DNA of 15,095 nucleotides from an archaeon (GTDB lineage Archaea; EX4484-52; B79-G9): NCBI GenBank assembly GCA_043813875.1, contig JBDRKP010000010.1, positions 1 to 15,095 on the forward strand. The letters are read 5' to 3'. Shown piece after piece: positions 9,001-12,000 of this stretch. Position 1 is the stretch's first letter; every line of letters begins with the position of its first letter. Made by a program: the position numbers.

Positions 9001-12000
9001 GATTTGTGAGTGTATGCGCTTTGTTGCATCCTAAAAAAAATTGTCATTAATTTTTTTTGAGGATATCGGCAGGGTTCCATTGGAACCGCTATATAAGCGG
9101 ACAGGCAAATCTAGTTCTTAGGGTGATTTTATGACTAGGAAAGATGTGAACGAAGTGTTTAAAAGAGGATTGATTGAGCGATATGCGCGGGAAGACATAA
9201 GGGACATACTAAGCAGGATCTGATGGCAGAGATGAATGTTTTCTTTTCCATCTGTTTTGGTCTCTTTTTTCGTATTTGGACATAGTGGTCCTGAAAGCGT
9301 CAACAAGTGAGATGTTGTAGGAATTCGCGATGCATATCAGGGCGAACAGGACGTCGCCAATCTCTGTTTTCAGATTATCGCCAGGTGTCTTTTTGAGTTT
9401 TTTGCTTTCGATGTTATTTATCTCGCGAGCGAGTTCGCCGGTCTCTTCAACCAAGGCCGCAAGCTGGGATAAAGGCGGCCAGTAGCCGTCTTCAAACTGG
9501 CTTATCCAGTCGTCTACTGTCTTTTGAGCAACTTTGAGTTCCAATATATCATCTCCAGCGTCTTGCCAGCCAGGATTTGTAGGTGTAGATTGCGCCATCG
9601 GGGCATAATTCGTGGCAGCAGAAGCATTTTATGCATTTTTCGCGGTCGAATTCCGGATAGTCATCAAGGGTTATTGCGTGCGGGGGGCATACCTTTTTGC
9701 AGATGCCGCATCTTTTGCATTTGGAGATATCTACTCTTGGCTCGAATTTCAGTAAAGTTTTTGAAAGGTATGATTTTATGGGTTTTGGGATAAATCTGGT
9801 CATGTTCTGTGACTTTTGGATGTTGTATGCAGGCATCTTTATGTTGAATGGAGGTATTTTGTCACCGACTAGGTCTATTTTGCTTAAGTCGCCGACACCC
9901 AGGGATCTTTTTTCTGCTGCATCGACTGTGCCTATTGTCTCAAAGCCCATGAGACCGGAGCATATGGCATCAACTGATACGCAGTCGCTGCCGGCTGCGA
10001 GGATGCCGAAGTGCTTTTTTTCGCCGTGTGAGGGACCGTTGCCTTCCATGCCATCGATGCCGTCCATTATGCAGAAAGAGGGGTTTGATACAGAATAGAT
10101 GTCTGAGAGGACTTGTGAGAAGTCATCTTTGCCGAGAATATGGGCTTTCATGCGCTCGCCGAAGGGGATGCATCCGAAGAAGTTTTTGACTGCGCCCGTA
10201 TAGCCGGTCAGGATATGTGTCTTCATCTTAGGAAGCGATATAACTACGTCGGCATCCAACAGGTCTTTTGCAATCCAGAGCTTTTTCATCTGCAACGCTT
10301 TCAGAACGTCAACTTCTATGTAGCCGTTGTTTTTGAAATCAATTGCTTTTATCCCAAGATCATCACAGACGGCTCTTATTCCGCATACGTCAAGGCTGTG
10401 CAGGCCTTTGTCCATCTGGATGTTCTGTGTGTCGCCGACTATGGGGGTGGCGCCATGGTCCAGAATATGCTCTGAGACCGCTTTTACGACGGATGGGTGT
10501 GTGGTGATTGCGCCTTCAGGATCATTTGCTTTCAGAAGATTTATCTTCAGCAGCACGTTATCGTCTTTGCTTATCTTGATTCCGCCAGCCAGTCTTATGG
10601 ATCTATCAACAGCTTTTTTGACATTATCGTAATCATAGTCAGGGCATTTGACGACAGATACTTTGCTCATGAAGTAATTTTTGTTGCAGAATTATAAAAA
10701 TTCATGAAATTTTCATGCGATTGAATCATTTCAAGCTTTTTTATTGTGAAGAGATACTTTATACACAATAAAAAATCATGAAATTTCTGTGCTATTTTTG
10801 CATTTCAAGTTTTTTTATTGTCTGTATATAGTTTATACACAATAAAAAATATTACTTTCAGGAGAACTTGTGGAATGTCCGATGCAAACCAAAGAATCGA
10901 GGGATACAGACCAACGTATTATAACTCCACATGAAATGAGGGGGTGTTCTGAAATGATGGAAAACGCAACGAATCACTAGCGTATATGTTATACGTTTGT
11001 TTTTAAGTAAAATACGGACAAAAATCATACATAGGTATAAATTATTGCCTTGCGAACAGCATGCCATGAATCTGTATATTGCGGCAGCACTTGGGGCAAT
11101 AGTCTTTATCGCGGTGTATCTTGCGAAACTATATTTCGTGCCGGGTATGATAACTTCAGGAATGTTTATGACTCTGGTCTTCGTCCTTGCGGTGATTGTC
11201 GTATTTATCATCGCTTCAAATTAAGGCCGAGAATCAGTGTTGCGTCATCGTTCCTGATATCTATCTTTTTTCTTATCCATGTGTCGAGGAGGTATCCGGG
11301 AGATGCGGAGACGATGTCAATTCCAAAGGGTTCTGCTTCCGGGAAAGGTACGGGCGGTAGGACGTAATCGCAATCGCATTTATCTTTGTAAAATTTTGGA
11401 CCTGTTGAGGTCATCTCGCCTATGATTATCCTGTCTTTTACGAGGAGGACGACCGGCATAGGAGGTGGGCGGAAAGCGAAATTGTGGGCAAATGCGATGG
11501 AGAGGTCTCTTGTGAGCGCGGAATAGATGCCTATGTTCTGGTGAGCGTCGGATAGCTCTATCTTTAGGGCCTCTTTTTTTTCATCCTCTGAGAGGAGATG
11601 CATGTTGTTGCATATCCCTGGGGTATCTTTTAATGTGCTGATTATTATTCCAGCGTGTTCATTACTTATGTGAAGTCTGGGCTTCATCAGAGCTATTTTT
11701 TTGAAGTATAGTCTTTCGATAGTATCGATACTGTCGGCAGTATCGGATGAGTCCATACAGGCATTTTTGTGGAATGAACAGGATGCGCAGTCAAAGCTGA
11801 TGCGTCCGGAGGAGTTTCTTTTGAATCCGGCGCCGGTCAATGTGTCGAAACATGGGTAAAGAGGACAGGAATAGAGCATATTTTTTTCCATAAATATCAA
11901 AACGCTTATAGAAATAAAACTTTTTATTTATAGTCAAAACACGGATACCAATATTTTAAAAAGGAAAAATAGGGATATTGATCCCTCACATACCTACAAG

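Follow-up and report, generated by a model that had tools for sequence, protein, structure and literature searches.

Which protein uses the cofactor NPN (nickel-pincer nucleotide) in an archaeal genome that encodes its synthesis and has no LarA? The question is raised by g00158 (P0001), a DUF362 protein fused to a 2×[4Fe-4S] ferredoxin domain (DUF362-Fd). It is encoded in a window of 15,095 nucleotides, the whole stretch of DNA that was analysed (contig JBDRKP010000010.1 of assembly GCA_043813875.1). The survey proposed that DUF362 proteins are NPN enzymes and that the ferredoxin-fused form performs a net oxidation of a 2-hydroxy acid or sugar. DUF362 (PF04015, COG2006) is a family of unknown function. 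Its homology to LarA is already on record and is not new; according to a passage of PMC11770544, both belong to Pfam clan CL0471, and the LarA tree there takes DUF362 as its outgroup. Our literature search found no paper that proposes DUF362 as an NPN enzyme, and PF04015/DUF362 was absent from the 12 supplementary files searched among the 17 of PMC13524815.

Domain organization and surroundings of g00158

The features of the locus are summarized in Table 1. The PF04015 profile matched g00158 over its full length (profile positions 1–198 of 200) with 188.4 bits against a Pfam cut-off of 24. Pfam, the structure model, and the structure matches delimit a short linker subdomain (residues 238–305) and the ferredoxin domain (residues 306–373). 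The two CxxCxxCxxxC(P) motifs consist of C318, C321, C324, and C328 and of C346, C349, C352, and C356, and each of these eight cysteines was kept in at least 90% of the sequences in a 141-sequence alignment. The survey had described a 2×[4Fe-4S] ferredoxin domain fused to DUF362, and Pfam, with two 4Fe-4S motifs, bears this out. The motifs are shared with clostridial-type 2×[4Fe-4S] ferredoxins such as the PFOR delta subunit and polyferredoxins, whereas the copy in g00158 is fused to the C-terminus of DUF362. The ferredoxin domain matched MvhB and FwdF in sequence (E 3.7e-10 to 4.5e-6) and clostridial-type ferredoxin domains in structure (Z 7–9.3).

Table 1. Features of the g00158 locus (positions in the window).
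Feature	Position	Strand	Basis or remark
g00158 (P0001), DUF362 + 2×[4Fe-4S] ferredoxin fusion	9549..10670	minus	ATG start, 373 aa; ORF translation and Pfam
DUF362 domain, residues 39–237	9960..10556	minus	PF04015; homologue of LarA's NPN-binding N-domain
2×[4Fe-4S] ferredoxin domain, C-terminal, residues 311–363	9582..9740	minus	Fer4 families over cut-off
Motif H152-x9-K162-x14-H177	10140..10217	minus	aligned to LarA His174, Lys184, and His200
MazG-type nucleotide pyrophosphohydrolase gene, directly downstream of g00158	9209..9598	minus	PF03819, 60.4 bits
Two small genes upstream of g00158, 117 aa and 230 aa	10858..11900	minus	same strand as g00158

Proteins of Methanosarcina and Methanolobus that share 40–50% identity with g00158 carry no more specific names than "DUF362 domain-containing" or "(Fe-S)-binding protein". 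Cultured Methanosarcina and Thermotoga are among the organisms with a DUF362-Fd. Its DUF362 domain matched 7645 clusters at 50% identity (E ≤ 0.001). Of the 150 nearest representatives at 50% identity (the best 150 of its relatives), 139 have both CxxCxxCxxxC motifs, which indicates that they have this architecture in common; it is the commonest among the nearest relatives. A search of the ESM Atlas returned DUF362 clusters and nothing else, and the sole NCBIfam match, the "Npun_F2552 family", was below cut-off. g00158 is a typical member of a widespread DUF362-2×[4Fe-4S] subfamily, from which nothing sets it apart.

The longest reading frame of the MazG gene runs into the 3′ end of g00158. 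Two congeneric genomes (L218 and L224) have the same pair, DUF362-Fd followed by MazG; all five compared loci of other genera lack it. The 117-aa and 230-aa genes matched no family over cut-off in Pfam or NCBIfam; the latter also stands upstream of DUF362-Fd in two congeneric genomes.

Comparison with the fold and residues of LarA

The structure of g00158 was modelled from 141 sequences (pLDDT 95.3). The 17 best listed Foldseek matches of this model were all LarA-family entries (E 7.8e-8 to 2e-5), so that the same claim of the survey holds for these 17 rows. VIA-align gave Z scores of 19.5 for 7s91 (215 aa, 2.8 Å), 18.9 for 9eia, 18.0 for 5huq, 16.5 for 9q3j, and 15.4 for 4nar, with aligned lengths of 214–225 residues overall, and the next non-ferredoxin match after the LarA family reached a Z of only 5.5. 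By this comparison, the DUF362 domain is homologous in structure to LarA's cofactor-binding N-domain, and the two descend from a common ancestor. The kinship was visible solely by profile-profile and structure comparison. A single-protein search of PDB sequences with g00158 matched ferredoxin domains alone, and a profile of 78 DUF362 domains found no LarA chain among the PDB sequences (best match 5jd6, E 0.24).

Profile-profile alignment with hhalign (probability 86%, E 4.8e-6), which is not a coordinate superposition, placed H152, K162, and H177 of g00158 on His174, Lys184, and His200 of LarA, the counterparts that the survey had proposed. The alignment partner was a LarA homologue (H179, K189, and H205) numbered 5 ahead of the Lactobacillus plantarum enzyme. 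The Lar_N profile (PF09861) matches g00158 weakly, at 13.9 bits (cut-off 23.3), over the same stretch and in identical register. The last two residues of the motif are spaced by x14 in g00158 and by x15 in LarA. The paired residues and the fold (Z 18–19.5) argue for the reading that NPN is held by K162 (as a thioamide) and H177 (as the Ni ligand), that the fusion provides a net, ferredoxin-linked oxidation, and that DUF362-Fd is the user of larBCE in this organism.

Other positions argue against that reading. The first catalytic His of LarA (His108; H113 of the homologue) faces the non-conserved Q85, and H58 falls in an insertion relative to LarA. In the LarA superfamily, an Asp binds the ribose of the cofactor and an Arg or Lys binds its phosphate, according to a passage of PMC12611868. 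In the alignment, the Asp falls on L45, next to the conserved N44, and the Arg on A48, both in a stretch of uncertain register; at the positions so paired, neither His108 nor the phosphate-binding Arg appears to have an equivalent in g00158. The substrate-binding C-domain of LarA is also absent; the linker and the ferredoxin domain, with two [4Fe-4S] clusters, take its place.

P59, K150, H152, K162, G166, H177, D203, G210, and D234 were invariant in the 141-sequence alignment. Among the residues listed as invariant by the survey, K150, H152, K162, H177, and D203 kept this status, whereas H58, K148, T151, and N163 were conserved only at 90% or more. In a second set of 78 DUF362 sequences, K150, H152, K162, G166, H177, and D234 were invariant and D203 was kept in at least 90%. 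g00158 carries every family-invariant residue (K150, H152, K162, G166, H177, D203, and D234). Its pocket is predicted to be lined by K162, H177, and H152, together with K150, N163, D203, and D234.

NPN synthesis and candidate users in the source genome

The source genome is 91.5% complete. The larE, larB, and larC genes (C72:3144–5854) gave NCBIfam scores of 330.7, 296.6, 227.2, and 146.7 against cut-offs of 150, 175, 90, and 50, respectively, which confirms the NPN-making set that the survey had reported. The survey had also found LarA missing, and no PF09861 match in this genome exceeded the cut-off; the best was the 13.9-bit match inside g00158 itself. We also searched for aldo-keto reductase (AKR) and ornithine-cyclodeaminase (OCD) families and found neither. 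For the latter we used PF02423, which we take to be the family of the NPAD-dependent ornithine cyclodeaminase (Desguin 2025). The genome has larBCE, and none of the known NPN users that were looked for (the three kinds LarA, AKR, and OCD) was found in it, which favors DUF362-Fd as the user. The second DUF362 protein, g00220, was confirmed at C13:975–2102, where its neighbors are LPG_synthase_TM, UbiA, DegT, GFO/IDH/MocA, hexapeptide-transferase, and GT2 genes.

NphT-type AKRs, in which a His/Lys pair tethers NPN, are like DUF362 candidate users where LarA is missing (passages of PMC13524815). Their fold is a TIM barrel unrelated to DUF362. NphT was discovered through its adjacency to larBCE, whereas DUF362 has no such adjacency (the same passages, for NphT).

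Distribution of DUF362 and LarC

The counts that the survey had given for its own phylum were reproduced: of the 42 genomes, 10 had LarC, 17 had DUF362, and 7 had both. In family f5, none of the 10 genomes had LarC and 5 had DUF362. The control Bacteroides thetaiotaomicron has DUF362 and no LarC, as stated previously; it has a DUF362 protein of the twin-arginine type. Another control, Methanosarcina acetivorans, has LarC, LarA, and DUF362. Haloferax volcanii had been listed as lacking DUF362; this held at E ≤ 1e-10, where no match was found, and did not hold at E ≤ 0.001, where a match exceeded the cut-off.

Among 55 genomes with DUF362-Fd, 37 also hold LarC, which is in line with NPN use. LarA is also present in 39 of the 55, however, and accounts for the LarC of those genomes. 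In two further phyla, DUF362 was far more frequent where LarC was present: in 57 of 64 LarC-positive and 2 of 16 LarC-negative genomes in the phylum of G042, and in 49 of 51 and 3 of 16, respectively, in the phylum of G044. These contrasts favor NPN use, but LarC is near universal in both phyla (265/281 and 145/161 genomes). Moreover, the control family FlpD, an anaerobe marker, showed the same contrast in the phylum of G042 (21/24 vs 4/16), and the raw co-occurrence there was set aside because of this. FlpD showed no such contrast in the phylum of G044 (21/24 vs 14/16). The 16 LarC-less genomes of the latter represent 8 lineages, and LarC and DUF362 were lost jointly in 5 of them, independently. 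The exceptions, 3 of the 52 DUF362-positive genomes, are about what would be expected from gaps in assemblies that are at least 90% complete. Of 15 DUF362-positive genomes from a third phylum, each at least 95% complete, four have no LarC (G570, G565, G585, and G627).

Intact pockets in genomes without NPN synthesis

An NPN enzyme would be confined to genomes with larB, larC, and larE, but DUF362 with an intact pocket was also found in genomes that lack one or more of them. In four genomes of the own phylum (G024, G025, G031, and G041; 92–96% complete), neither LarC nor LarB nor any LarE over cut-off was found. K150, H152, K162, N163, H177, D203, and D234 are all kept in their DUF362 proteins, and three of the four genomes have ferredoxin-fused forms. 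G427 and G514 have DUF362 with the intact Lys/His/His triad and neither LarC nor LarB. The 7 paralogues examined in G427 without exception keep K150, H152, K162, N163, G166, and H177, and the 6 that align at D203 and D234 keep both. The residues were also kept in 7 of 8 further DUF362 proteins, comprising 7 from G570, G565, G585, and G627 and one encoded beside lar genes (locus L163); the exception was a divergent paralogue of G570. The assembly of G570 is a single 3.84-Mb contig. The conservation of the same pocket without lar genes indicates that NPN is not the ligand of the whole DUF362 family, and NPN is unlikely to be its common ligand. Because the pocket residues are invariant with or without NPN synthesis, the common ligand is most likely one that is present in all such organisms.

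Gene neighborhoods

We scanned 80 DUF362-Fd loci (up to 10 kb either side, 3799 ORFs) and, from the other side, 80 metagenome loci of LarC (777 kb). LarC and LarB were found in none of the 80 DUF362-Fd loci and LarE in one (L013). The LarC loci contained LarB in 24, LarE in 11, LarA in none, and DUF362 in one (L163). By a rough estimate, chance would give about 0.4–0.75 such neighbors per 80-locus set. About 0.75 DUF362 genes are expected by chance in the LarC loci, so the lone case carries no statistical weight, and the link between DUF362 and lar genes did not exceed chance from either side. The family-wide dependence on NPN that the survey had proposed falls on this result and on the intact triads in LarC-less genomes.

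In L163, genes for a DUF362 protein with a twin-arginine (Tat) leader and, next to it, a polyferredoxin diverge from the adjoining larC-larE-larB; the arrangement speaks for NPN use. L087 has an AKR-ferredoxin fusion immediately upstream of larC, a hint that coupling between an NPN scaffold and Fe-S clusters is possible. A single-sequence search for this fusion in the 80 LarC loci gave no match.

No gene flanking DUF362-Fd was conserved beyond single lineages in the loci scanned. With neither conserved neighbors nor the substrate-binding C-domain of LarA, the 2-hydroxy acid or sugar named as substrate by the survey is not borne out. Radical SAM genes account for 5 of 127 flanking ORFs and directly adjoin DUF362-Fd at 4 of the scanned loci. 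In family f5, DUF362-Fd is the last gene of an operon with three radical SAM genes. DUF362-ferredoxin-radical SAM fusions occur in L022 and as four proteins of 672–709 aa among the 150 nearest representatives.

Ligand and role of DUF362-Fd

The best explanation of these results, to which we assign a probability of roughly 0.5, is that DUF362-Fd is a ferredoxin-linked module whose LarA-like pocket holds a ligand other than NPN. g00158 may act as a ferredoxin-linked oxidoreductase or an electron-input module. The pocket ligand would trade electrons with the two clusters, which would relay them singly, in either direction, between the module and ferredoxin or a partner. A radical SAM enzyme is the probable partner in some lineages. 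The common ligand may be a simple pyridine nucleotide or a metal bound directly at a His/His/Asp site, which may include a modified Lys.

Three observations stand against an NPN-independent pocket. The pocket of g00158 would contain exactly the residues that tether NPN and bind nickel in LarA; we know of no other role for these residues in the LarA family. Its genome encodes NPN synthesis, and no known user was found in it. In the phylum of G044, DUF362 follows LarC (49/51 vs 3/16, with 5 joint losses) and FlpD does not. The proposal that DUF362 proteins are NPN enzymes keeps the LarA fold, the paired residues, the larBCE set without a known user, and these joint losses in its favor, but it does not stand as a statement about the family. 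NPN on K162 and H177 of g00158, with the fusion as its electron outlet and larBCE as its supplier, is a possibility that we hold to be improbable. Ten genomes without LarC with the triad intact (those named in the section on intact pockets), ferredoxin-fused proteins among them, B. thetaiotaomicron, and the almost complete lack of lar neighbors all weigh against it. That DUF362-Fd in larBCE genomes carries NPN wired to its two [4Fe-4S] clusters, and that lar-less lineages switched the ligand in the same pocket, we likewise consider doubtful.

Somewhat less likely still is a nickel or iron enzyme in which H152, H177, and D203, possibly with H58 and a modified K162, bind the metal directly and the link to LarC reflects a shared nickel supply. 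This reading would explain both the joint losses with LarC and the persistence of DUF362 in LarC-less genomes. The invariant His, His, Asp, Asp, and Lys set would be in keeping with a metal site, and the twin-arginine leaders on some DUF362 forms suggest export after loading of a cofactor or metal. Against this reading, many DUF362 members have Asn in place of H58. Least probable is that DUF362-Fd merely donates electrons to, or helps to mature, radical SAM or other Fe-S enzymes, with a binding or regulatory pocket and no substrate chemistry of its own: the fusions, the f5 operon, and the 4 adjoining loci fit this role, but a radical SAM neighbor is missing at most loci, and about ten invariant polar pocket residues fit catalysis or tight ligand binding better.

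A passage of PMC11770544 puts the share of species with LarA homologues at 29.5% in archaea and 16.4% in bacteria. LarC is far commoner in the two phyla sampled above, which indicates that most NPN users are still to be found. DUF362, the nearest relative of LarA, has kept the tethering Lys and the nickel-binding His and is the obvious candidate. The present results narrow that claim: either a more general ligand occupies the pocket, or more than one ligand is in use across the DUF362 family. Either outcome would provide a very large family with its first function. If DUF362-Fd does bind NPN, it would be the first NPN enzyme to perform net, ferredoxin-coupled redox chemistry and a main NPN user in LarA-less anaerobes.

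Ferredoxin-fused DUF362 gene and its family

The survey's finding had proposed that DUF362 proteins use the nickel-pincer nucleotide (NPN) that LarB, LarC, and LarE make, and that the ferredoxin-fused form (DUF362-Fd), to which g00158 belongs, carries out a ferredoxin-linked oxidation of a 2-hydroxy acid or sugar. The facts beneath it were borne out: g00158 is a DUF362 plus ferredoxin ORF, and its host genome (1.64 Mb, 90 contigs, 91.5% complete) contains a second DUF362 gene, larE-larB-larC, and no match to Lar_N (PF09861, the LarA N-domain) over the cut-off of 23.3, the top match (13.9 bits) lying inside g00158 itself. 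A search of the PDB by sequence matched the ferredoxin part of g00158 alone. Searches of the host genome for the two further kinds of NPN user in the literature, a member of the OCD/mu-crystallin family (PF02423), which we take to be the family of the NPAD-dependent cyclodeaminase, and an aldo-keto reductase, found neither. PMC13524815 describes aldo-keto reductases as a kind of NPN-dependent enzyme besides LarA. Our literature search found no paper proposing DUF362 as an NPN enzyme, and the supplementary files of PMC13524815 gave no match in the 12 (out of 17) that were searched.

Features of the window, the host genome, and the compared loci
Feature	Location	Strand	Remarks
g00158 ORF	window 9549-10670	-	single ORF, ATG start, 373 aa
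DUF362 domain of g00158	residues 39-237		Pfam PF04015, 188.4 bits (cut-off 24)
Two 4Fe-4S motifs of g00158	residues 311-363		Pfam
MazG-type pyrophosphohydrolase	window 9209-9598	-	downstream of g00158; Pfam
Two small genes	upstream of g00158	-	without Pfam family
PD-(D/E)XK nuclease and PLD-type (two-HKD) genes	window 6775-8976	+	adjoin each other
Large open frame	window 11986-15093	-	at least 956 aa, continues past window edge; CARDB domain, MopE-type metal-binding motif; probably a surface protein
Second DUF362 gene	C13:975-2102		clustered with LPG_synthase_TM, UbiA, DegT, GFO/IDH/MocA, hexapeptide-transferase, and GT2 genes
larE-larB-larC	C72:3144-5854		each above NCBIfam cut-off
NadE (NAD synthase)	L014:4511-5518, L015:8960-9952, L016:2-1027, L020:8818-9810		directly upstream of DUF362-Fd
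DUF362-ferredoxin-radical SAM fusion	L022:10001-12049		682 aa; radical SAM part closest to HxsC-type models
f5 operons	L222:2974-8650, L225:966-6661		three radical SAM genes and a DUF483 gene, DUF362-Fd last
DUF362, polyferredoxin, and larC-larE-larB	L163:7338-12795		metagenome contig
Aldo-keto reductase-4Fe-4S dicluster fusion	L087:289-1437	+	Pelosinus MAG (G043); PF00248 140 bits, Fer4_9
larC beside the fusion	L087:1486-2883		begins after a gap of 49 nt

The DUF362 part of g00158 (residues 1-305) matched 7645 cluster representatives at E ≤ 0.001, and two CxxCxxCxxxC motifs were present in 139 of the best 150 of these. Named relatives were proteins of Methanosarcina, Methanolobus, ANME-2, and Thermoplasmata, annotated merely as "DUF362 domain-containing" or "(Fe-S)-binding". 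When 141 sequences were aligned, the residues P59, K150, H152, K162, G166, H177, D203, G210, and D234 were invariant, and H58, K148, T151, and N163 were kept in at least 90%. g00158 is a typical representative of DUF362, a family that is known but uncharacterised. Its flanking gene order was conserved in 2 genomes of the same genus and absent at 5 compared loci of other genera; the PD-(D/E)XK and PLD-type pair was seen again near DUF362-Fd in a same-genus genome (L218).

Likeness to LarA

The AlphaFold2 model of g00158, built from the 141-sequence alignment, had a pLDDT of 95.3 and a pTM of 0.93. The Foldseek matches listed down to rank 17 all belonged to the LarA family (from 7s91, E = 7.8e-8, to 4nar, E = 2e-5). 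VIA-align against 48,161 chains gave Z values of 19.5 (7s91), 18.9 (9eia), 18.0 (5huq), 16.5 (9q3j), and 15.4 (4nar) over 214-225 residues, and the best remaining non-ferredoxin match after the LarA chains was at Z = 5.5. The homology itself is already on record: PMC11770544 places DUF362 and DUF2088 in Pfam clan CL0471 and uses ten archaeal DUF362 sequences as the outgroup of a LarA tree.

We compared 78 DUF362 domains, with the ferredoxin part removed, with 25 LarA homologues drawn from the compared genomes by hhalign (probability 86.3%, E = 4.8e-6, 176 columns). Invariant in the latter were D75, R78, H113, H179, K189, and H205, numbered after one homologue (+5 relative to L. plantarum LarA). 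The last four correspond to L. plantarum LarA His108, His174, Lys184 (NPN tether), and His200 (Ni ligand), and the first two to the ribose-binding Asp and phosphate-binding Arg of the homologues described in PMC12611868. With one gap, H152, K162, and H177 of g00158 were paired with H179, K189, and H205, and the weak Lar_N match spanned this stretch without any shift in register. These alignments uphold, at the level of sequence, the H-x9-K-x14-H equivalence to LarA that had been claimed, and the exact match at the three positions favours NPN use in lar-positive genomes.

According to PMC12611868, distant LarA homologues keep one catalytic His, the His that binds Ni, the Lys tether, the ribose Asp, and a phosphate Arg/Lys. 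In DUF362, the first catalytic His is aligned with the variable Q85, the ribose-binding Asp with a position one residue off N44, and the phosphate-binding Arg with A48; H58 falls within an insertion relative to LarA. The C-terminal domain of LarA, substrate-binding according to PMC12611868 and PMC11851776, is missing from g00158, which has a linker and the ferredoxin domain in its place. Beyond H152/K162/H177, the LarA active site thus appears to have no match in DUF362.

Pocket conservation in genomes without lar genes

Family f5 of the window's phylum had LarC in 0 of 10 genomes and DUF362 in 5 of 10. LarC, LarB, and LarE were not found above cut-off in G024, G025, and G031 (92-93% complete) or in G041 (96%), and their DUF362 proteins, with ferredoxin-fused forms among them in three of the four genomes, kept K150, H152, K162, N163, H177, D203, and D234. 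G427, from the phylum of a Desulfomonilaceae genome, gave 13 DUF362 matches without LarC or LarB. All 7 paralogues examined, including one ferredoxin-fused and two Tat-leader forms, kept K150, H152, K162, N163, G166, and H177, and D203 and D234 were aligned and kept in 6. The third phylum was that of an Ignavibacteria genome. Among its genomes at least 95% complete, 82 of 101 had DUF362, and LarC was missing in 4 of the 15 DUF362-positive genomes tested, one of which (G570) is a single 3.84-Mb contig. When 7 DUF362 proteins of these four genomes were aligned with the L163 protein, the pocket residues were kept in 7 of 8, the exception being one divergent G570 paralogue; the Tat-type proteins were of the same type as the L163 protein beside lar genes. 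The control Bacteroides thetaiotaomicron also had DUF362 and lacked LarC. Since the LarC-less exceptions in the Desulfomonilaceae phylum (3 of 52 DUF362-positive genomes) were no more than assembly gaps could give, and G354 of the archaeal sample had LarB and LarE, the exceptions that stand firm are f5 and the third phylum, along with G041 and the control. These intact pockets argue against NPN as the ligand of the whole family.

Co-occurrence of DUF362 and LarC

Of the 42 genomes of the window's phylum, 10 had LarC, 17 had DUF362, and 7 had the two together. In the 55 genomes from which the DUF362-Fd loci came, LarC was present in 37 and LarA in 39, and LarA therefore accounts for LarC in most of them; 6 had LarC without LarA, 10 had neither, and 8 had LarA without LarC, which shows the incompleteness of those assemblies. 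Separately, G078 gave nine Lar_N matches and no LarC match was found, and in G618 LarC was split between two distant places of a single contig, probably as distinct LarC1 and LarC2 genes.

In the phylum to which a Methanolobus genome belongs, LarC was present in 265 of 281 genomes (at least 90% complete; G097-G376 sample), and the Desulfomonilaceae phylum had it in 145 of 161 (at least 90% complete; G377-G536 sample). In these two anaerobe-rich phyla LarC is far commoner than LarA homologues, reported in 16-30% of species in PMC11770544, and most NPN users there are therefore unaccounted for.

In regard to the Methanolobus phylum, DUF362 was present in 57 of 64 sampled LarC-positive and 2 of 16 LarC-negative genomes. 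The anaerobe marker FlpD gave the same contrast (21/24 versus 4/16), which makes the association there a matter of lifestyle or clade. In the Desulfomonilaceae phylum, DUF362 was in 49 of 51 LarC-positive and 3 of 16 LarC-negative genomes, and FlpD was without contrast (21/24 versus 14/16). On a tree of nine ribosomal proteins (1444 columns, 66 of 67 genomes; G467, with no L2 match, was left out), the 16 LarC-negative genomes formed 8 lineages, of which 5 also lacked DUF362 and 3 kept it; two lineages were without DUF362 though LarC was present. All 5 informative sister comparisons ran in the same direction (one-sided sign test, p = 0.03). This is real, modest support for a LarC-DUF362 link, and the repeated joint losses favour NPN use in lar-positive genomes; the tree result could also stem from a shared need, e.g., for nickel.

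Gene neighbourhoods

Around 80 DUF362-Fd loci of species genomes (up to 10 kb either side), the LarC, LarB, and LarE of the host genome as queries matched at 0, 0, and 1 loci, respectively. Among the 127 ORFs next to these genes, a Pfam scan turned up no lar gene, and conservation was confined to single lineages. Recurring neighbours were NadE, upstream at 4 loci of Methanosarcina, an IF-2B/MtnA-like gene, downstream at 5 loci (mostly Planctomycetota), and radical SAM genes (4 loci). NaAD is a substrate of both NadE and LarB.

Around LarC (80 metagenome loci, 777 kb), DUF362 was found at 1 locus, LarA at 0, LarB at 24, and LarE at 11. One DUF362 match per LarC locus set is, by a rough estimate, the chance level. 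The match, L163, was the sole DUF362-lar adjacency in the 160 loci. Its layout is striking: a 306-aa DUF362 with a Tat leader and a polyferredoxin of 521 aa are divergent from larC-larE-larB. At another locus, L087, a fusion of aldo-keto reductase and 4Fe-4S dicluster domains precedes larC. Because NPN-dependent aldo-keto reductases are now published, this fusion could be a ferredoxin-coupled NPN enzyme on that scaffold, the mechanism that had been proposed for DUF362.

Ligand and role of DUF362

Judged from the alignments, the Lys/His/His pocket is invariant across the family, irrespective of the capacity to make NPN. The simplest account, to which we give a probability of about 0.5, is that the DUF362 ligand is available to all these organisms and that LarA built its special NPN tethering on an older pocket. 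That DUF362 proteins are NPN enzymes is supported in part: the LarA fold, the residue match, and the joint losses speak for it, but the pocket is kept without NPN synthesis and lar neighbours are lacking. Limited to lar-positive genomes such as the host, where no other known NPN user was found, which favours it, NPN use is conceivable yet unlikely. No finding of the analysis suggested that the substrate is a 2-hydroxy acid or sugar. Whether with NPN or another ligand, DUF362-Fd likely has a role in single-electron transfer, because Fe-S partners recur: the fused ferredoxin, an adjacent polyferredoxin, radical SAM fusions, and the f5 operon of three radical SAM genes.
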